Below are positions 36,592 to 51,004 of a stretch of 64,000 bases of DNA, one piece after another. The DNA is taken from positions 1,248,001 to 1,312,000 of the forward strand of contig OZ250172.1 in assembly GCA_965237905.1 (NCBI GenBank), read 5' to 3'. Under the pieces are notes generated by a model. The model was not told the DNA's origin and made no database searches. It was given only the letters and a program-made list of their open reading frames with translations. A program made the translations under genes and the position numbers. How positions within the stretch are numbered: position 1 is the first letter of the stretch; each line of letters begins with the position of its first letter. Source of the stretch: Nitrospinaceae bacterium (GTDB taxonomy: Bacteria; Nitrospinota; Nitrospinia; Nitrospinales; Nitrospinaceae).

Positions 36592-37194
36592 ATGCCTACC
36601 CAGCTGAATCGCACATCCATCCGAACCTCATTGGGCCCGAAAATTCTTTTTTGGATTTGGGTCATAGCTCTGATGCTGGCCGCCCCGTCCTTTGCCGGCG
36701 AAGATATTCCGGTCGACGCGCCCCAATTTTCCCTGCCATCGCTCGACGGCCGTAAATTGACGCTGAACGAGTATCAGGGAAAATATCTGCTGGTCAATTT
36801 CTGGGCCACTTGGTGCGGACCCTGTAAAATAGAAATGCCGTCACTGGAGTCGCTGTACCGGAAATTCAAAAAACGCAACCTCTCGGTGATCGCCGTTTCC
36901 AACGATATTTTCGGGGCACAGGTGGTGGAACCTTATATTCAGGCACAGAATTTTACCTTCCCCGTCGGGCTGGATCCGAAACTGAACGTCAGCAACCAGT
37001 TTGGCGTGATCAGCCTGCCCACAACATTTTTGATCGACCCCCAAGGCAAAATCATCGGCGTTTTAAATGGCGCGGAAAACTGGGTGGACCCCAAAACCCT
37101 TCTCTATTTTGATCAACTGCTCGCAACCTCCGAGAAAGCCGCGGAAACACCGTCATCCTCTCCATGCAAAAACAATCAAAAAACACCGTGCTGA
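36592..37194 (+). CDS. TlpA/ResA-family thiol-disulfide oxidoreductase
   Basis: Signal/TM, NFWATWCGPC..EMP, LPTTFLID. Confidence 0.92.
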   Translation: MPTQLNRTSIRTSLGPKILFWIWVIALMLAAPSFAGEDIPVDAPQFSLPSLDGRKLTLNEYQGKYLLVNFWATWCGPCKIEMPSLESLYRKFKKRNLSVIAVSNDIFGAQVVEPYIQAQNFTFPVGLDPKLNVSNQFGVISLPTTFLIDPQGKIIGVLNGAENWVDPKTLLYFDQLLATSEKAAETPSSSPCKNNQKTPC

Positions 37195-39014
37195 AAATTT
37201 TAAGGACGCTGGTCCTGGCAGCCCTCGTTGCGTGCGGCGCCCCACTGCTCTCCTGGGCTCACGACTATCCACCGGACAGTCTACTGGAAGGGGATATGGT
37301 GTTCATTCCCGCGGGGCAGTTCGTTTTCGGAACCAACCAGACAGACAAATCCGAACTGGGCGCTTCCATGGGAATTCCCAAACCCCTGTACCAGGACGCC
37401 CACCCCGAACAGAAACCGTTTCTCAAGGGATTTTACATCGACCGGCTTGAAGTGACGAATCGCCGGTACCAGAAATTTCTGGAAAACCTCCCCACCTATC
37501 CCGAATACAAAATCATGATCGAAAAGCTCGGTTATTACGCGCCGCCCAAGGATTGGCAAAAAACCCAATTTCCCGAAGGCCTGGGCGATCACCCGGTGGT
37601 CTGGGTGACTTGGTTCGACGCCGCCAACTTTTGCCAATGGGCGGGCAAGCGCCTGCCCACCGAAAAGGAATGGGAACGGGCCGCGCGCGGCACCAAAGGA
37701 CAAGCCTACCCCTGGGGAAATGCGTTTGAACGCGGTCGTGCCAACCTTCCCAACAAAATAGGCTCCAAAGTCCCGCTGTCCAAAGTCGGCACTTTCCCCA
37801 AGGGAGCCAGTCCCGAAGGCGTAGAGGATTTGATCGGCAATGCCTGGGAATGGAACGACGGGGACTATGTTTCCTATCCCAACAACACATTCCAGTTCGA
37901 CGACTTCAACCAGGATTACAAAGTGATCCGGGGAACCTCCGTTTCCGATATCGGGCATTTCCCCGGTGAATCCTATTCCCAAGTACTGAAAGAGTTTGCG
38001 CGGGCCGGATACCGCCAGTATGCCGATCCCGATCAGGGGGCGTCGGATGTCGGGTTCCGCTGTGTCAGCAGTAACGCTCCGAAAGGGTTTCAAGAGGACC
38101 CCGCTTCACCCAATACCCAGGCGCAAAACAACCCGTCCTCACAGCCGGCCCCCAGTGGCGGTTTGTTCGGTGGATCTACGGGAACTTCGGAGTCGGCTCC
38201 CGATGCCTCACCCAAGGCTTCATTCAATCCTTTCGAACCGGAATCCACACTTCCAAAATCCGGGATACTGGTATTGTCCCTGATTTCGTTACTAGCCGGT
38301 CTGTTCAGTTTTCTATCTCCCTGCACCTTACCCATCCTCCCGGCCTACTTCGCGATTACCGCCCAGACCAGCCGGGGGCGGATGACGCTCAACTCCATCG
38401 CCTTTTTTTGCGGATTGGCATCCCTGTTTGTGATGATGGGGGCGTCTGCCAGCGTCTTCGGAAGCATTCTGCGCGATTACCTGGATTCCCTGACCTTCTG
38501 GGGCGGCATACTTATTATTATTTTCGGCGCCATGACTTTAGCCGGCAAGGGATTTTCAGGAGCTACATTCAAAAGCGCACCCGCGGCAACCCTGGCAGGA
38601 TATTTTCTGTTTGGAGCCACGTTCGCCATGGGCTGGACCCCCTGCGTAGGGCCGGTGTTGGCCGGAATTCTGCTCTTGGCGGGATCAGACAAAACCATCC
38701 TGCAGGGCATGACCCTGCTGTTCTTTTATGCCGTAGGGCTGGGATCACCCTTGATCCTGATCGCATCGGTGTGTAGTCACCTTCCAAAAGACGGCTGGTT
38801 CTGGCGGCTGTTGCGCGGCAAGGCTTGGGACATCAAAATCGGCAAGCGGTCCTTTCTTCTTCATACCACCAATCTATTCAGTGGATTATTACTGATATTT
38901 CTCGGGATCGCTCTCGCCCAGGGATATCTGACTTACTTCAACAACCTCCTTCCTATAGAGCTCCAAATCTGGTTCAGCGGGTTCGAGGAAAAAGTCATGC
39001 ACTGGTTCGATTGA
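37164..39014 (+). CDS. FGE/SUMF1-like domain fused to a CcdA/DsbD transmembrane domain
   Basis: EVTN, HPVVWVTW.DA..FC.WAGKRLPTE.EWE.AARG, GNAWEW, GFRC; Pro/Ser linker; SFLSPCTLP and GWTPCVGP CcdA cysteines. Confidence 0.88.
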   Translation: MQKQSKNTVLKILRTLVLAALVACGAPLLSWAHDYPPDSLLEGDMVFIPAGQFVFGTNQTDKSELGASMGIPKPLYQDAHPEQKPFLKGFYIDRLEVTNRRYQKFLENLPTYPEYKIMIEKLGYYAPPKDWQKTQFPEGLGDHPVVWVTWFDAANFCQWAGKRLPTEKEWERAARGTKGQAYPWGNAFERGRANLPNKIGSKVPLSKVGTFPKGASPEGVEDLIGNAWEWNDGDYVSYPNNTFQFDDFNQDYKVIRGTSVSDIGHFPGESYSQVLKEFARAGYRQYADPDQGASDVGFRCVSSNAPKGFQEDPASPNTQAQNNPSSQPAPSGGLFGGSTGTSESAPDASPKASFNPFEPESTLPKSGILVLSLISLLAGLFSFLSPCTLPILPAYFAITAQTSRGRMTLNSIAFFCGLASLFVMMGASASVFGSILRDYLDSLTFWGGILIIIFGAMTLAGKGFSGATFKSAPAATLAGYFLFGATFAMGWTPCVGPVLAGILLLAGSDKTILQGMTLLFFYAVGLGSPLILIASVCSHLPKDGWFWRLLRGKAWDIKIGKRSFLLHTTNLFSGLLLIFLGIALAQGYLTYFNNLLPIELQIWFSGFEEKVMHWFD

Positions 39015-39576: not shown

Positions 39577-39762
39577 GAATTTAAGGCCAAACGTTTTCCG
39601 GCAAAGTCCTATTCCTCCAATTTTTCCTCTAAACCCGACCCTCGGAAGACCAGCTAACCCCTTCATTGGTAAGGGAGTACCCCTTCCAAAAGCAGACACC
39701 TCTATACGGAAATTCCTTTTTGACTTTTCAGAGTTTGTGAGTCAATCTATATATCCAATGGG

Positions 39763-39937
39763 ATGCCAGAAGCGCCAGGGGAGCTTTTGGCATTAATGCT
39801 CACCCCCTGAAGAAAGGAGGTGATCCATTGTCTAACGAAAGCACAATGGGAGCTTCCGGAGATAAGGGCTAACCCCTTTATCGAGGAAGCTCCCTGATTA
39901 TTCGGGGGGGCTCCACTTTTATAGTGGAGCCCTTTTT
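39763..39937 (+). ncRNA. Candidate structured small RNA / micro-ORF unit with an extended Shine-Dalgarno
   Basis: Hairpin 39763-39793; AGAAAGGAGGTGATCCA at 39811-39827; TTG-start 14-codon ORF 39828-39872; hairpin 39848-39894; terminator. Confidence 0.55.
39908..39937 (+). terminator. Rho-independent terminator
   Basis: GGGCTCCACT-TTTAT-AGTGGAGCCC perfect 10-bp stem followed by TTTTT. Confidence 0.85.
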
Positions 39938-40071
39938 ATTTGGAAGACACTCTAAACCATTGAGTCCATTTTTTATAAAACAGTCCAGCGACCCCACAAA
40001 CTCCCGGATCCGGGGCTCGCCCTTGAAGGATTTTCGCCGTCACGGCGAATGAATCAAGAGATTGAAATCGA

Positions 40072-42666
40072 ATGAATTTTTTAAAGAACGTCTCCATACG
40101 CGACAAGCTCAACCGGATCATCATGCTGACCACCAGCGTGGCCCTGTTGTTGGCCGCGCTCGGTTTTTTTCTGTATGATCTTCTGGAATTTCGCAATACC
40201 GAGACGCGTGAGCTTTCAAGTGTAGCCGATATTATCGGCGCCCACAGCACAGCTGCCCTCAAATTTCAGGATTCCATTTCCGGCCGGGAAACCCTGGAAA
40301 CCTTAAGCATCGACCCCCGCGTTGTTTCCGCCAGACTGTATACCCAGGAAGACGAAATTTTTGCATCTTATAACCGGGACCGCAAAAGCAAAATTGTCTT
40401 GCCGTCCCAACCTCGACCCGCAGGCAGCTATTTTGAACAAGGACAAATTCTGATATTCAGGCCGATCCTTCTCAATGGCAAAAAAGTGGGGACCATTTTT
40501 ATTCATTCCGACCTTCAAAATTTTTATGAGCGTCTTCAGCAATACGGCATCATCGCGTTTATAGTACTGGTCATCTCCCTGCTCGGTGCCTTTCTACTTT
40601 CATCCAAACTGCAGAAGACTATTTCCTTCCCGATCCTGCATCTGTCCAACCTGGCGAACCGGGTTTCCACCGAAAAAAATTATTCCCTGCGCGCCGTCAA
40701 CGAAAGTCAGGATGAACTGGGAGAACTCGTCAATCAATTCAACGACATGTTGAGCCAGGTTCAGGATAGAGACCTTGCGCTTCAGGAGGCTCATCACGCA
40801 TTGGAGGGAAAAGTCCGGGAACGTACCCACGATCTGGAAAATGAAATCCAGATTCGCCGGAAATCGGAATCCGCTCTTCGGGAAAGTGAAGAACGCCTGC
40901 GGAGTATCCTGGACCATGCTACCGCAGTGGTTTATATGAAGGACATCGATCTGCGGTATGTACTGGTCAATCATCAGTTTGAAAAAGTGTTCGCCGTAAC
41001 GAATGAACAGATCCGGGGGAAAACGGATCCGGAAATTTTCCCAAAAGATCTAGCGGGCCGCTTTATCAGCCGGGACAGCATCGTCCTCGAATCCGGCCAA
41101 CCCTTGGAAGTCGAGGAACAATTTAAGGTAAATGGGAAAACCGAAACTTATATTTCGATCAAATTCCCTTTGCGCGATTCCGACGGCAAAATTTACGCCG
41201 TTTGCGGTCTGGACACCAATATTACGGACCGGAAAAATTTTGAGCCGGAACTGCAAAACGCCAAGGTCCAAGCAGATTCGGCCAACTCGGCCAAAACCGC
41301 CTTCATCGCGAATATGAGCCATGAAATCCGGACTCCTCTGAATGCCATTATGGGTTATTCCCAGATTCTGCAAAGGGATACCACGTTGACAGCGGAACAT
41401 CATCAGGCTCTGGAACGCATCGATTCCAGCGGGAAAAACCTGCTCGCCATCATCAACGACATCCTCGATATATCCAAAATCGAAGCGGGACGGATGGAAC
41501 TCCACTTGAGGAATTTCAACCTGCTTCAGGTCATCGAGGATATCACCACTCTTTTTAAATTGAAATGCGAAGAGAATGGTTTGATTCTTGAAATCTCCCC
41601 GCTTCCTGAAGACCGGTGCCATCTATACGGGGATGAAGAAAAACTAAGACAAGTGCTGATCAACCTCCTGGGAAATGCACTCAAGTTTACCGATTCGGGA
41701 ACCGTTTCCCTGAACATCATTCCTGGGGAAAACGACGAATACCGGTTTGAAGTCAGAGACACTGGAAAGGGCATATCGAAAGAAGCTCAAAAAACCATCT
41801 TTGAGCCTTTTAAACAAGACGCCGAGGGAATCAAAAAAGGAGGCACCGGATTGGGTCTGGCCATCTGCCGGAAACAGATTCTGCTAATGGGATCGGATTT
41901 ATATGTATCCTCGGAAATAGATGAAGGGTCGCGTTTTTATTTCAGCCTCCATTTACCGCCATCCAGAGGAAAATCGAAATCCGGAGAAAAAATAAGCAAG
42001 AAGGTAATTCGAATCTCCGGCGAACATCATGTCAAAGCCCTGGTCGTCGACGATAACTCGGACAACCGGACGGTGCTGAGCCGCCTGCTGAAAACCATAG
42101 GAGTCAACGTCATTGAAGCGGAAAACGGACTGATCGCTCTGGAAAAAACGCGCGAACACCTGCCGGATATTATTTTCATGGATATTCGTATGCCTGTCAT
42201 GGATGGCCGGGAAGCCATCACCAAAATAGTGGAGGAATTCGGACAGGAGCGGTTCAAAATCGTGACCATCACCGCTTCGGCCATGCAACACGAACGGGAA
42301 CAATTCCTTAAACTGGGTTCCCATGAGGTGATCCTCAAACCGTTTCAGACCAATGAGGTTTTTGAATGCCTGAAAAATCTTCTTAACATCGATTATATTT
42401 ATTCAGAAGCACTTCAAAAAGACACCGAACCCAAAGTGTCGCACGACATGGATTATTCTCAAATACATATCCCCAAAACCATCCACCACTCGCTCAAAGA
42501 AGCGGCGGAACTGCATTATGTCACAGGCATTCGACAATCACTGCCGTTACTCGTTGAGTCGGGAGAAGAAGGGAAAAAGCTGGCGGATAATCTGAACTTC
42601 TGTCTCAATGATTACGATATGAAAAAAATTCTAAGTATTCTCGATCAGGTCAATTCGGAAGGGTAA
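40072..42666 (+). CDS. Hybrid sensor kinase (CHASE-like periplasmic domain, HAMP, PAS, HisKA, HATPase, REC)
   Basis: 2 TMs, DELG.L...FN, PAS (VYMKD), SHEIRTPLN, GGTGLGL, LVVDD...FMDIRMP...KP. Confidence 0.92.
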   Translation: MNFLKNVSIRDKLNRIIMLTTSVALLLAALGFFLYDLLEFRNTETRELSSVADIIGAHSTAALKFQDSISGRETLETLSIDPRVVSARLYTQEDEIFASYNRDRKSKIVLPSQPRPAGSYFEQGQILIFRPILLNGKKVGTIFIHSDLQNFYERLQQYGIIAFIVLVISLLGAFLLSSKLQKTISFPILHLSNLANRVSTEKNYSLRAVNESQDELGELVNQFNDMLSQVQDRDLALQEAHHALEGKVRERTHDLENEIQIRRKSESALRESEERLRSILDHATAVVYMKDIDLRYVLVNHQFEKVFAVTNEQIRGKTDPEIFPKDLAGRFISRDSIVLESGQPLEVEEQFKVNGKTETYISIKFPLRDSDGKIYAVCGLDTNITDRKNFEPELQNAKVQADSANSAKTAFIANMSHEIRTPLNAIMGYSQILQRDTTLTAEHHQALERIDSSGKNLLAIINDILDISKIEAGRMELHLRNFNLLQVIEDITTLFKLKCEENGLILEISPLPEDRCHLYGDEEKLRQVLINLLGNALKFTDSGTVSLNIIPGENDEYRFEVRDTGKGISKEAQKTIFEPFKQDAEGIKKGGTGLGLAICRKQILLMGSDLYVSSEIDEGSRFYFSLHLPPSRGKSKSGEKISKKVIRISGEHHVKALVVDDNSDNRTVLSRLLKTIGVNVIEAENGLIALEKTREHLPDIIFMDIRMPVMDGREAITKIVEEFGQERFKIVTITASAMQHEREQFLKLGSHEVILKPFQTNEVFECLKNLLNIDYIYSEALQKDTEPKVSHDMDYSQIHIPKTIHHSLKEAAELHYVTGIRQSLPLLVESGEEGKKLADNLNFCLNDYDMKKILSILDQVNSEG

Positions 42667-42714: not shown

Positions 42715-43452
42715 CTAGTCCGAATCACTTTCGACGTCTTTGGCGCATCGAAAGCCAATAAAATTGTAACGCGCTGCCGGTTCCATGTAGTTGCGTGCCC
42801 AAGTGTGGGAAAAATCTATATTCAAATGGGACTGGTACAACCCGCCCCGGATCACTTTATACAATCCCTTCTCGGTGCCGGGCATACCGTTATAGTCCCA
42901 GTCGTCTGCCGTCCATTCCCACACGTTGTGGCCCATGCCATACATCCCGTACGGACTGATCCATTCTTGTCGCTTGTCCACCGGCTCCGGCATAAAACCC
43001 GAAAATCCATTATTGGGATGGGGCTGATATTTCCCCCACGGCCACTTGCCCCCGTCGGGTCCACGCGCCGCTTTTTCCCATTCCTGTTCCGTCGGCAAAC
43101 GCTTGCCGACCGAGTCACAATACGACTTCGCTTCTGCAAAAGGCACCCATGTGACCGGGAATTTCTCCTTCCCCGGGCCAACCTCAAAGTCCGGCTTGAA
43201 TTTTTTGTATTCGCCGCGCTGCATTTCGTACCGGTCGATCAAATACGCTTTCAAAAAAACCTTCCGGCCAAGAGCGGTCTTTGGGTCTTCGGCATGGCCG
43301 TATTTGAATTCTCCCGCGGGGATGTACACCATCTCTTTCGGAACTTGAACGTGGGCAGGAACCTGAACGGGAATTTGCTCGACACTACTCTCGGAGCAGG
43401 AAAAAAGCCACAAGGATAAGAATAACAATAATGAGAATAGTCGCCATTTCAT
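42715..43452 (-). CDS. FGE/SUMF1-like lipoprotein
   Basis: Lipobox LFSC; GKRLPTEQEWEKAARG, NVWEW, GFRCAKD; no catalytic Cys pair. Confidence 0.85.
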   Translation of the reverse strand: MKWRLFSLLLFLSLWLFSCSESSVEQIPVQVPAHVQVPKEMVYIPAGEFKYGHAEDPKTALGRKVFLKAYLIDRYEMQRGEYKKFKPDFEVGPGKEKFPVTWVPFAEAKSYCDSVGKRLPTEQEWEKAARGPDGGKWPWGKYQPHPNNGFSGFMPEPVDKRQEWISPYGMYGMGHNVWEWTADDWDYNGMPGTEKGLYKVIRGGLYQSHLNIDFSHTWARNYMEPAARYNFIGFRCAKDVESDSD

Positions 43453-47937: not shown

Positions 47938-48022
47938 TTTGTAAGACTCCATCAAAATACCGGCTCAAACCGAAATTTCGCTTTGACCCTTTGACTCGGC
48001 TTTTTCAATAAAATTGGGAATT

Positions 48023-51004
48023 ATGAAAAATCCCCGCCTGCCCGGCAAAATTATCCTCCCGACCGCCTTTTTTCTCATTCTGGCTGGATCGTTGGGCTTG
48101 TTATTCGACAATAAATTTCCCGGTATTGCTGTTGCCTCTGATGATCAATCCCAAGCGTCCTTTATTATCGAAACGGCCGCTAGCGAGAAGCAGGTGGTGG
48201 ATCTCTCCCAAACGTCGCCTGCCTGGAGGCAGAAGCTCAGCAAACATATTTTCATCAATATTGACCAGGAACTGCAATCGCTCGAACAACAATTCACCCT
48301 GCACAACAGCGCCAAAGGAAAACGGTTAATCAAGAGAGTAAGAGTTTCTCTTCAGAAAATGAAATCCGGAAAACAGAAATTTATGCGTACTGGCCGGGAA
48401 CCCTCCCTCGCTCTCTTTTACAACGGCCGCACGGTGCTGGAATACAATCTGTGGAAATTGAAGGGCCTGACTCGAAACTTAAAGATGGACCAGACTCAAT
48501 CGCGCGGCCTCTATCGGGTTTACGCGCTGATGAACAAATGGCTCGTCTATGTGGCCCACCGCGAAATCGACGCACGGCGACAAGGAAGCCTCGATGCCTC
48601 ACTCCGGGCAGAAACGAAGTCAACGCAGGGTATCGAAGAGTTCAATACCGCTTTCCCGCAAATATCAGAAATGGCTAAGATTACCGAACAGGATCTCAAA
48701 GAGGCCGGCGAAGCACTCTCCCAACCGCACTCCCCAGTGCAGAAGACCACACCCAACATCAATTCGGAAACCTTCGAACGGGAGACTCTCAAGTCACCGG
48801 AACCGGAGACCCGGCAAGACCCTCAACCGAATTTGGTGATGGAAGAAGGGAACACCGTCTCTCCACCCAGCTTCGAAGAGGGCGTTGACTCCCCCGAGGC
48901 GGCAACCATTTCAAACTGGATATTCGTACTGGTAATGGGGGTTGGAGTTCTCATAGTCTCGTTCCTGATATTCCGCAGAAAAAGAAAATCCACCGATCTA
49001 CGTACGTTTTATAGAGGTTATGCCAAAAATCATTTGGAACGCCACGATCAAAACACCACCGATTTCGTAGAGATTCATACCCTCATAGGATCTGGCTACA
49101 CAGAGGATACCGCGGCTGACAACGCAAGTGAGGTTCCAAACAATGGGGATTTCTCTCTGGAGAATTCAATCTTCCGCGAAGCACTTCCTCAAGCCCCGGA
49201 TCACATGACTCTCCAAAATGAACCTTCCTCCCTGAGCAGTGCAATGTCAGAAACCATGGAGTCTCCTACAGAAGAATGGTCCAAGAACAGTGAAATCGAA
49301 GCACCCATCACCGATGGTGAAACGCCCGAGGGTATTCCTTCACAGGTAACGGACAACGGATTTGAAGACCCCGCTCAGAAGGACATGACCTTCCAATTGG
49401 AAGAGCTCACCCAAAAACTGGAAAACACGCTTGCGGAAAACGACTCTCTAAAAGAAAAGCTGGAGACCTTCCACGAAATAAATGAAGGTTTGGAAAGCCA
49501 GGTAGAAGCCCTGCGCAATAAAAGAAAAAAGTACGCCCACGGATGGGTAAATCTTCTTAAGGAAAACCACTCCCTAGCGGAAGCACAGGAGATTTCTAAT
49601 AAAGAAACAGAGGAGCTCGACCAGGATCTGGAAAGCACACTCACCGAAAAAGAAGATCGCGCCCAAGGACTGGAAAACATCCTTGCGGAAAACGACTCTC
49701 TAACGGAAACGCTGGAGTCGACCAATTCGGAAAATGAAACATTAAAAGAACAACTGAAAACTCTCCGCGAAGAAAAAGAAGAACGGGGCAAACAAATGGA
49801 AACCCTACGCAATGAAAAAAAAGAGTACACCCAGAAATTAGAAACTCTCCGCGAGGAAAAAGAAGAGAGCACCCAAGGACTGGAAAGCATCCTTGCGGAA
49901 AATAACTCTCTGACGGAAATTCTGGAGTCGACCGCTTCGGAAAATGAAACATTAAAAGAACAACTGGAAACTCTCCACGAGGAAAAAGAGGAACGGGACA
50001 AACAAATGGAAACCCTCAGCACCAAAGAAGAGGAGCTCGCCCAGAAGCGGGAAAACATCCTTGCGGAGAATAATTCTCTAACGGAAAAATTGGAGACCCT
50101 CAATGAGGAAAAAGAGGGCCTGAAGAAACAATTGGAAACCCTTCACTCTAGAGAGGAAGAACTCGCCCGGCATCTGGAAAGCACGCTCGCAGAAAACAAC
50201 TCTCTAACAGAAAATATGGGGACCGCCCACACAAAAGAGGAAGACCGGGACAAACAATTGGAAACCCCCCACGCTGAAAAAGAAGAACGCGACCAGGAAT
50301 TGGAAAACACGCTTGCAGAAAACAACTCTCTAATGAAACAGCTGAAGACCTCTCACCAGGAAAATGAACGCCTGAAGAAACATTTGGAAACCCTCCACAC
50401 CGAAAAGGAACGCCTGGCGCAAAAACAAAATAACACTGATGCAAAATCTAAAACCATGAAGAAAACCCCTAAATCCACTCGGGGGAACAATAAAATACCG
50501 GCGAAGAAACTGAAAAGCACTCCCACAGAAAAAGAAGCCTTAACAAAACAATTTAAAGCCGCCCAGGAAAAAGCCAAAAGATTGGCGAAGGAACTGAAAA
50601 ACTCCTCCGCAGAAAGAGAAGCCTCAACGAAAAAACTTAAAGCTACTGAAGAAAAATCCAAAAGATTGACGAAGGAGCTGAAAAACACCTCCACAGAGAA
50701 AGAAACCTCAGCGAAAAAACTTAAAGCTACTGAGGAAAAAATCAAAAGATTGGCGAAGGAGCTGAAAAACACCTCCACAAAAAAAGAGACCTTAACGAAA
50801 AAACTTAAAGCCACCCAGGGAAAAAATAAAGGGTTGCCGAAGGAACCGAAAAGCACTTCTACAAAAAAAGAAGCCTTAACAAAAAAATTTAAAACCTCCC
50901 AAGGAAAAAACAAAGCGACTGCCAAACAATATAAAGCTTTGGCCAATCAATGGAAGCGACCCAAACCGAAAGCGATCAAACCACCGAATCAGAGTGCACT
51001 CTGA
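48023..51004 (+). CDS. Large membrane-anchored repetitive coiled-coil protein of unknown function
   Basis: N-terminal signal/TM, second TM followed by RRKRK, acidic LAENxSL repeats, then Lys-rich 28-aa repeats. Confidence 0.8.
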   Translation: MKNPRLPGKIILPTAFFLILAGSLGLLFDNKFPGIAVASDDQSQASFIIETAASEKQVVDLSQTSPAWRQKLSKHIFINIDQELQSLEQQFTLHNSAKGKRLIKRVRVSLQKMKSGKQKFMRTGREPSLALFYNGRTVLEYNLWKLKGLTRNLKMDQTQSRGLYRVYALMNKWLVYVAHREIDARRQGSLDASLRAETKSTQGIEEFNTAFPQISEMAKITEQDLKEAGEALSQPHSPVQKTTPNINSETFERETLKSPEPETRQDPQPNLVMEEGNTVSPPSFEEGVDSPEAATISNWIFVLVMGVGVLIVSFLIFRRKRKSTDLRTFYRGYAKNHLERHDQNTTDFVEIHTLIGSGYTEDTAADNASEVPNNGDFSLENSIFREALPQAPDHMTLQNEPSSLSSAMSETMESPTEEWSKNSEIEAPITDGETPEGIPSQVTDNGFEDPAQKDMTFQLEELTQKLENTLAENDSLKEKLETFHEINEGLESQVEALRNKRKKYAHGWVNLLKENHSLAEAQEISNKETEELDQDLESTLTEKEDRAQGLENILAENDSLTETLESTNSENETLKEQLKTLREEKEERGKQMETLRNEKKEYTQKLETLREEKEESTQGLESILAENNSLTEILESTASENETLKEQLETLHEEKEERDKQMETLSTKEEELAQKRENILAENNSLTEKLETLNEEKEGLKKQLETLHSREEELARHLESTLAENNSLTENMGTAHTKEEDRDKQLETPHAEKEERDQELENTLAENNSLMKQLKTSHQENERLKKHLETLHTEKERLAQKQNNTDAKSKTMKKTPKSTRGNNKIPAKKLKSTPTEKEALTKQFKAAQEKAKRLAKELKNSSAEREASTKKLKATEEKSKRLTKELKNTSTEKETSAKKLKATEEKIKRLAKELKNTSTKKETLTKKLKATQGKNKGLPKEPKSTSTKKEALTKKFKTSQGKNKATAKQYKALANQWKRPKPKAIKPPNQSAL
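49662..50016 (+). repeat. Intragenic direct repeat, 210-bp offset
   Basis: 49662-49806 and 49872-50016 are near-identical (CCCAAGGACTGGAAA...CAAATGGAAACCCT). Confidence 0.85.
50540..50910 (+). repeat. Intragenic 84-bp tandem repeats (28 aa, Lys-rich)
   Basis: CTTAAAGC recurs at 50636, 50720 and 50804. Confidence 0.8.

Follow-up and report, generated by a model that had tools for sequence, protein, structure and literature searches.

The window analyzed here, a stretch of 64,000 nucleotides from the genome of a Nitrospinaceae bacterium, holds an intergenic element that, as judged from its conservation, is likely a free-standing gene of about 180 bases. We consider it slightly better than an even bet (a probability of roughly 0.55) that this gene specifies a stand-alone mini-mRNA of the rre class, the job of which would be to be bound and read by ribosomes rather than to supply a peptide, with translation predicted to flip the RNA between an open and a closed fold. 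The reading as a switch is built on sequence comparison, namely, on the conserved ends of the element, the 13-17-nt complement of the 16S rRNA tail, the fixed frame of about 14 codons, the drifting peptide, and the covarying helices.

Layout and predicted ends of the element

The -35 hexamer, the hairpins, the 17-mer, the ORF and the terminator that a preliminary description, made from the bare sequence, had picked out were all found where it had placed them (Table 1); the features that it missed are the pseudoknot and the internal anti-Shine-Dalgarno (anti-SD) box. The fold of the element region has a z-score of -7.6, with none of 200 shuffled sequences folding as well. The minus strand attains the same fold score as the plus strand, so that the strand is not given by folding alone. 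All folding energies were calculated without pseudoknot and ribosome terms.

Table 1. Features of the element, numbered by position in the window
Feature	Position	Strand	Energy or basis
-35 hexamer TTGACT, predicted sigma-70	39720..39725	+	motif conservation in homologs
-10 hexamer CAATCT, predicted, 17 nt past the -35 hexamer	39743..39748	+	motif conservation in homologs
P1, 5' hairpin	39763..39793	+	-19.1 kcal/mol
Pseudoknot 5' strand CAGGGG in the P1 loop	39776..39781	+	predicted pairing with the pre-SD strand
Pseudoknot 3' strand CCCCTG, just before the SD	39804..39809	+	predicted
Extended Shine-Dalgarno sequence (SD) AGAAAGGAGGTGATCCA	39811..39827	+	17-nt perfect complement of the host 16S rRNA 3' tail
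H1, hairpin occluding the ribosome-binding site (RBS): SD, spacer and start codon against codons 5-10	39816..39857	+	-18.7 kcal/mol, predicted
Micro-ORF, 14 codons and stop, TTG start, TAA stop	39828..39872	+	
Internal anti-SD box TGGGAGCTTCC, codons 7-10, common to H1 and P3	39847..39857	+	
P3, hairpin around the stop codon, excluding H1	39848..39894	+	-29.8 kcal/mol, predicted
Predicted intrinsic terminator, stem 39907-39933 followed by a T run	39907..39938	+	conservation

An exact TTGAC[A/T] motif lies upstream in 51 of the 82 homologs with enough flanking sequence, and in these 51 promoter-bearing homologs the A at position 2 and the T at position 6 of the -10 hexamer are each 88% conserved; transcription would start near 39755-39757. 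On the other side of the ORF, a hairpin followed by a T run is present in 79 of the 82 homologs, and the terminator stem shows strong two-sided changes. A consensus scanner for promoters and terminators made no call at the element, so that both assignments rest on conservation; the conserved ends predict an RNA of about 180 nt. Expression was considered in four sequencing runs, one of which is recorded as RNA. In this one metatranscriptome, contigs of relatives (at most 90-95% alike, depth 2-3) cover the element at the low depth of its neighbors and cross both the predicted promoter and the predicted terminator, delimiting no discrete ends.

Complementarity to the 16S rRNA tail

The 3.09-Mb genome contains AGAAAGGAGGTGATCCA exactly twice, once in the element and once at the 16S rRNA 3' end. 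When paired with the 17-nt 16S tail, this sequence has a predicted duplex energy of -30.9 kcal/mol, which no other non-rRNA site attains among 57,540 windows with an SD core, the next reaching -26.9 kcal/mol. The perfect 17-nt complementarity claimed in the preliminary description thus holds against the 3' end as read from the 16S gene itself, and its assertion that the match is not an rRNA remnant also stands, given the conservation of the family and the finding that no in-register similarity to 16S rRNA beyond the tail is present at the element.

A perfect match over all 17 nt is not shared by the family as a whole: among 83 copies, the complement is 17 nt long in five, at least 16 nt in 14 and at least 13 nt in 76. 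The host tail GAAAGGAGGTGATCCAGC (given as reverse complement) is found in all 31 genomes with a detected 16S end. The conserved complement spans the free tail and stops at GATCC; the next base of the element varies, whereas the corresponding base of the host 16S rRNA does not. No covariation between the element and the host tail was found, the tail being identical in the 31 genomes and base -1 of the element variable. This base pairs and covaries with codon 7, which accounts for the lack of conservation at the final base of the 16S match. In the genera g6 and g17 (genomes G021, G024, G036, G039, G045, G057 and G098), about 10-13 kb separate the element from the 16S 3' end, with the element on the same strand as the rRNA gene; this is likely a matter of synteny and possibly one of co-location.

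A frame of fixed length and a drifting peptide

Frame, stop and start were counted in an alignment of 85 copies. The frame is 13-15 codons long in 83 of them and exactly 14 codons long in 71, in line with the 14-codon micro-ORF proposed earlier and with conservation of its length. It ends with TAA (56 copies), TGA (18) or TAG (11) and starts with TTG (51), ATG (33) or GTG (1), the spacing between AGGAGG and the start codon being 7 nt in 80 of the 85. The pN/pS ratio of the micro-ORF, as obtained from single-base changes on a tree, is 0.83, versus 0.18 for the hybrid kinase encoded downstream, a control that covers the first 120 codons in 7 genomes and is pairwise rather than tree-based; pairwise estimates for the micro-ORF are 0.77 and 1.07. 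On these comparisons, the length of the frame is preserved while the peptide appears to drift.

Codon-sized insertions and deletions keep a GGAGCTTCC-like box in frame in 84 of the 85 copies, and 65 of 74 have a box-to-stop distance of 7 codons. One four-fold degenerate codon is GGA in 60 of 61 copies; the invariance of the best-kept codons, silent positions included, points to a constraint at the RNA level. Residues S5, G8 and S10 of the peptide are well kept, and, as RNA structure depresses pS, a ratio near 1 is compatible with some selection on the peptide. Two copies, L208 and L234, no longer have the usual stop or frame. No regulatory codon run was found in the micro-ORF.

A predicted pseudoknot and two predicted, exclusive hairpins

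In an alignment of 25 sequences, eight of the nine pairs of P1 show two-sided changes and 70.9% of the cells are paired, a fraction that would be higher but for a register shift in the ATG subgroup; P1 is lost in one copy (L222). The loop of P1 can form a helix of at least 5 bp with the strand that precedes the SD in all 82 copies tested (a count made without L174, L027 and L222), with the compensatory variants CCAAGG/CCTTGG, CCAGAGG/CCTCTGG, CCGGGG/CCCCGG and GTCAGGGG/CCCCTGAT; four of its seven pairs change on both sides in the 25-row alignment. The energy of this pseudoknot duplex is -12.76 kcal/mol, versus -11.06 +/- 0.17 kcal/mol with swapped partners (0 of 300, uncorrected for kinship). 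In L174 and L027, an insertion of about 55 nt with extra hairpins separates the P1 loop from its partner, both strands being retained. An unpaired A in the loop does not vary among the 25 sequences. When the pseudoknot is left out, the C-rich strand is predicted to form a hairpin with the SD in 61 of 85 copies.

Downstream of the pseudoknot, the anti-SD box within the ORF would have two partners. All 25 sequences keep the six SD pairs of H1, the hairpin has 92.6% of its cells paired, and the substitutions in this alignment keep or improve the pairing. Base -1 and codon 7 are combined as A-T (16 copies), C-G (14), T-A (14) or C-A (5; n = 49). H1 outperforms that of shuffled ORFs in 47 of 47 TTG copies and 24 of 27 ATG copies, its inner stem being weaker in the ATG subgroup, and RNAalifold also pairs the anti-SD box with the SD. 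The same program missed P3 because the MAFFT alignment used (A2) misregisters this hairpin. P3 encloses the stop codon in 83 of 83 copies, leaving it fully unpaired in 59, and has 94.7% of its cells paired, with little covariation (two pairs, a level reached by 24 of 500 shuffles). Sharing the anti-SD box, H1 and P3 are predicted to be mutually exclusive, and in the full RNA the P3 state is placed about 9 kcal/mol below the H1 state by a prediction that has no pseudoknot term. The covariation of the hairpins, proposed in the preliminary description as a check, is accordingly seen for H1, the pseudoknot, the terminator and most pairs of P1, and scarcely for P3.

Distribution and genomic neighborhood

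A BLAST search found matches to the element in 45 of 61 related genomes. The exact pattern, with the second codon left unspecified, matched 73 of 120 genomes of the phylum, all of them within the order of the host; upon removal of one genome with a non-family match and addition of four copies found by BLAST and ten by a covariance model, the element is present in 86 of the 102 genomes of this order. The expectation of homologs with kept hairpins and ORF length is borne out. The element is nearly always in single copy (one incomplete bin has two) and is kept across four families of the order; many of the 16 genomes that lack it are incomplete bins. In 18 genomes of other orders, it was not found with the exact pattern, the covariance model or a one-mismatch pattern, the few matches there lying inside a coding gene or at control level. 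Three loci were dropped before the counts, namely, L228 (a 101-codon gene), L244 (3 codons) and L194 (cut by the contig end); one genome, G054, is counted as a holder of the element and is absent from the 85-row alignment.

In the host, the element lies downstream of a gene for a 159-aa protein without a Pfam family, the nearest atlas clusters of which are most frequent in Nitrospinota, and upstream of a gene for a CHASE8-HAMP-PAS hybrid kinase (40072-42666, plus strand). The kinase gene is located 3' of the element, on the same strand, in the genera g1 and g4, and is absent downstream in G006, a genome of the host's own genus, as well as in G014 and G015; it seems to have been inserted, in a lineage-specific manner, between the element and a convergent FGE-sulfatase-like gene. 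At 50 loci where the element was located (of 52), the nearest downstream ORF, as picked mechanically, is co-directional in 34 cases and opposite in 14, with none in two; other downstream neighbors include an FGE-sulfatase-type gene, MscS, GatC, SnoaL, CBS, NnrS and a pyrophosphatase.

Elsewhere in the window, a 616-aa ORF (37164-39014, plus strand) combines an FGE-sulfatase-like domain and a DsbD/CcdA transmembrane domain in one protein, with a thioredoxin-like gene adjoining it; a second FGE-sulfatase-like gene occupies 42715-43452 on the minus strand, and a 996-aa ORF (48014-51004, plus strand) contains long Glu/Lys/Thr-rich coiled-coil-like repeats.

Relation to known RNAs

The preliminary description could not assign the element to a named RNA family; a class of this kind has already been described. 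According to the main text of Hahn et al. (RNA Biol, PMC5711450), the rreB and rreR mini-mRNAs are reported only from Alphaproteobacteria. There, rreB co-sediments with the 30S subunit, is weakly translated and decays in a start-codon-dependent manner, its half-life being 10 min with the start codon and 37 min once this has been removed, although the RNA without a start codon is still found on 30S; a 20-fold overexpression had no effect on growth, the ribosomes far outnumbering the RNA; the RreB and RreR peptides are conserved within clades and RreB fusions are translated; and the authors call the function of the rre RNAs elusive (PMC5711450). In the open-licence literature of PMC and bioRxiv, no such gene was found to be reported in Nitrospinota, nor was any follow-up on rre function.

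By the sequence criteria of the class, the element would be an rre gene in its mode of operation and a new structural variant in a new phylum. The first criterion is complementarity to 16S rRNA over at least 16 nt before a small ORF, which amounts to 17 nt here and reaches this length in 14 of 83 copies family-wide. The second is a weak start codon 7 nt past AGGAGG and an ORF of 14-18 codons, as found here, with 33 of the 85 copies using ATG. The third is an RBS and start codon held in a conserved hairpin with the 5' seed single-stranded, which corresponds to the predicted, covarying H1. The element also shares with the class the extended SD that covers the full tail, a non-ATG start, TCT as the second codon in many copies, a predicted closure of the RBS by an anti-SD hairpin from within the ORF, a variable gene context and a predicted length of about 165-185 nt. 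The promoter and terminator that rre genes have of their own would have counterparts in the motifs conserved at the two ends of the element (51 and 79 of 82 homologs), which the RNA contigs of relatives run past. With rreB in particular, it has in common the 14-codon ORF; an in-ORF anti-SD is also present in rreB-, rreR- and CC2171-type loci. In contrast, similarity of the peptides is limited to Met-Ser: the peptide of the element is unlike the 14-aa CHLA-type and 18-aa types seen among the mostly alphaproteobacterial loci of a pattern scan, lacks the clade-conserved RreB or RreR sequence and is free of clear purifying selection. Furthermore, the element starts with TTG or ATG, not GTG, the first base of the start codon lies outside the 16S match, a 5' hairpin with a pseudoknot is added where rre leaders are short, and P3 provides a second partner for the anti-SD. 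A covariance model of the element family scores alphaproteobacterial loci at 11-26 bits, mostly over the SD core.

The element, by these comparisons, belongs to none of rreB, rreR, CC2171 and Ms_IGR-5. At the gathering threshold, Rfam models matched only two tRNAs in the whole window, both away from the element; the proposed Rfam scan thus leaves the element without a match above threshold, with the qualification that a sub-threshold match to CC2171 covers the SD core. This best match (RF01867) scores 34.5 bits against a gathering cut-off of 75, with E about 1e-5. The likeness to CC2171, a Caulobacter sRNA, consists in GAAAGGAGGUGAUCCA-N-UGUCU and a 3' terminator, and loci above the CC2171 cut-off have ORFs of 21-25 codons after the same SD; CC2171 differs in its downstream structure and has no 5' pseudoknot. 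Expression of CC2171 was detected by northern blot in Methylorubrum (excerpt of 10.1101/2022.01.24.477521), and Rfam 15 added one covarying pair to this family (excerpt of PMC11701678). Ms_IGR-5, an actinobacterial sRNA (RF02471, cut-off 45 bits), is not among the seven matches to the element at E up to 10 and differs in sequence and peptide. When its model was run against metagenome loci with a full-tail SD and a micro-ORF, one passed the cut-off and three scored below it, and Ms_IGR-5 itself appears to be another family of the rre-type class; it is listed as validated by RNA-seq in Streptomyces lividans (excerpt of PMC8079986). In S. aureus, ordinary mRNAs with extended SD pairing have been documented (excerpt of PMC13009471). 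Weak Rfam matches to suhB, mir-5697, SpF41 and others were rejected as terminator-like chance matches.

The attenuators of the trpL type have a short ORF that overlaps mutually exclusive hairpins 5' of a terminator. The element resembles them in this layout and differs in having neither a regulatory codon run nor a fixed downstream operon, as well as in an RBS that appears to be tuned for poor rather than efficient initiation.

A candidate mechanism and its rivals

The switch can be envisaged as follows. In the finished RNA, P3 would sequester the anti-SD box and the pseudoknot would sequester the C-rich strand, so that the SD is free. A free 30S subunit would dock via nearly the whole 16S tail (13-17 bp) and initiate slowly at TTG. 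A ribosome that has reached the stop codon in the P3 loop would have melted P3, making codons 7-10 available to close the RBS in H1; the melting would also expose the 3' arm of P3 to nucleases, and the closed RNA would likely be committed to decay, a step suggested by the start-codon-dependent decay published for rreB (PMC5711450). The level of the RNA, or of a decay fragment, would then report the ease with which ribosomes clear initiation. Such a mechanism would account for the fixed distance from box to stop, the indifference to the peptide and the double constraint on the box and, by analogy, it fits the 30S co-sedimentation, weak translation and decay of rreB. The weak covariation of P3, the weaker H1 of the ATG subgroup, the losses in L222, L208 and L234, and the RNA contigs of relatives that run past both predicted ends count against it.

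The preliminary description had suggested a self-contained RNA that captures 30S subunits. The capture is consistent with the conservation of the element and with the 30S binding of rreB, taken as an analogy, whereas a simple bulk sponge is the weaker reading since 20-fold overexpression of rreB was harmless to growth (PMC5711450). A doubtful yet serious alternative is that the RNA parks a few subunits and shields the 16S tail (for storage, hibernation or a check of tail maturity), with the ORF as a release route. The complement that spans the free tail and ends at GATCC before a variable base would suit such an RNA, as would the persistence of rreB on 30S without a start codon (PMC5711450) and the location of the element about 10-13 kb from the 16S gene in g6 and g17. 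However, storage requires neither a fixed 14-codon frame nor two exclusive hairpins, the ribosomes far exceed the RNA in the case of rreB, the overexpression of which left growth unchanged (PMC5711450), and coverage at the neighbors' low depth, as seen in contigs only, gives no sign of abundance.

The fixed length of the frame and the retention of G-A-S at codons 8-10 and, mostly, of S5 would also be expected of an ordinary small-protein gene in which a closed RBS keeps the output low and the 14-aa peptide is the effector, and the clade-wise conservation of RreB and RreR together with the translation of RreB fusions (PMC5711450) points the same way. We find this improbable because pN/pS is 0.83 versus 0.18 for the control, the kept codons lie within helices and are fixed even at silent positions, and no peptide is common to the rre-type families of 6 to 27 codons.

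Less probable still is a role of the 5' pseudoknot as a riboswitch-like sensor of a ligand or protein that gates the SD, with the micro-ORF and the 3' part as output. An H-type pseudoknot does adjoin the SD, its 3' strand has the SD as an alternative partner in 61 of 85 copies, and loop A is invariant in all 25 sequences; yet no Rfam riboswitch matches the element, no metabolic gene is under its control, the two pseudoknot strands can be set far apart by insertions (L174 and L027), and the alphaproteobacterial counterparts have only short leaders before the SD.

The further proposal of the preliminary description, a translation-coupled attenuator of the hybrid kinase, is very improbable: the leader-peptide-like layout with exclusive hairpins before a terminator and the kinase on the same strand in g1 and g4 speak for it, whereas the downstream genes are varied, 14 of 50 lie on the opposite strand, G006, though of the same genus, lacks the kinase there, and neither a regulatory codon run nor a fixed co-directional downstream operon is present. 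Finally, it is hardly credible that a minus-strand RNA acts as an anti-SD decoy that mimics the 16S tail. That strand folds equally well, but it is on the plus strand that the promoter motifs, the T run, the start and stop codons and the conserved G-U pairs are found. A match that is an rRNA remnant or due to chance is likewise hardly credible, given the lack of in-register 16S similarity past the tail and conservation in four families.

Breadth of the design and implications

A genome-wide pattern scan, with an estimated total of 3,900 loci, yielded at least 120 of them, for the most part alphaproteobacterial and with ORFs of 14, 18 and 20-26 codons; Gemmatimonadota and Gammaproteobacteria, as named in record titles, are among the matches listed. 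In a metagenome scan with the second codon left free, 118 loci combine a full-tail SD with a start codon, and 86 of these head ORFs of 8-30 codons. Among the 65 loci with TCT as the second codon, 61 close an ORF of 8-30 codons; the 53 loci without it include 25 that do so and 13 with fewer than 8 codons. The pattern is also present in 14 of 60 published Gemmatimonadota genomes sampled, most with ORFs of 11-22 codons.

Several families can be told apart among these loci. The Gemmatimonadota-type family (L057, L093, L120, L287, L291-L298 and L301) has the extended SD, about 20 codons, an ASDRR-like conserved end and a start that mostly reads TTG-TCT-AG, like the Nitrospinota element. Five metagenome loci (L321, L345, L331, L306 and L318, at about 250-300) form a 14-codon family resembling Ms_IGR-5, with a second match of 8-11 nt to the reverse complement of the 16S 3' region; it lies 8 nt past the extended SD, in exact register in four of the five, and corresponds to what we take to be helix 45 with its methylated loop. 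This second match may reflect either deeper pairing with 16S rRNA or an origin from an inverted 16S end. In a 6-codon family of the MRYGLR type (L308, L312, L319, L327, L343, L366, L371, L381, L386, L402, L309 and L336), a full-tail SD precedes a GTG or TTG start, often behind two small hairpins; two of these loci were scanned and gave no Rfam match at E 0.001. A family with an MRD start (L305, L322, L334, L342, L372, L360 and L395) combines the full-tail SD with ORFs of 26-31 codons and likewise had no Rfam match in the two loci scanned. On viral contigs (L034, L036 and L042, at 401-470), the full-tail SD stands before Lys/Gly-rich ORFs of 11-13 codons.

These observations suggest that the full-tail-SD design is far wider than published. 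As a tentative and rather speculative generalization, rre-type genes could be pan-bacterial sensors of the ribosome cycle or guards of the 16S tail, spread over many phyla as unrelated-looking families of 6-27 codons, with the Nitrospinota member showing the workings: the pseudoknot would present the landing pad, the 30S subunit would grip it with its whole tail, and one round of translation up to the stop codon in the loop would shut the RNA, the peptide being a by-product.

Since their description in a single class of Proteobacteria, the rre genes have had no function assigned, as far as the open-licence literature covered goes. The Nitrospinota family is diverse enough for the constraints on frame length, stop position and the two folds to be separated from that on the peptide and, as the former are kept while the peptide drifts, the question shifts to the cycle of the RNA on the ribosome. 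A one-copy gene in what are likely marine nitrite oxidizers, with counterparts in several other phyla, could be an overlooked basic control of translation.
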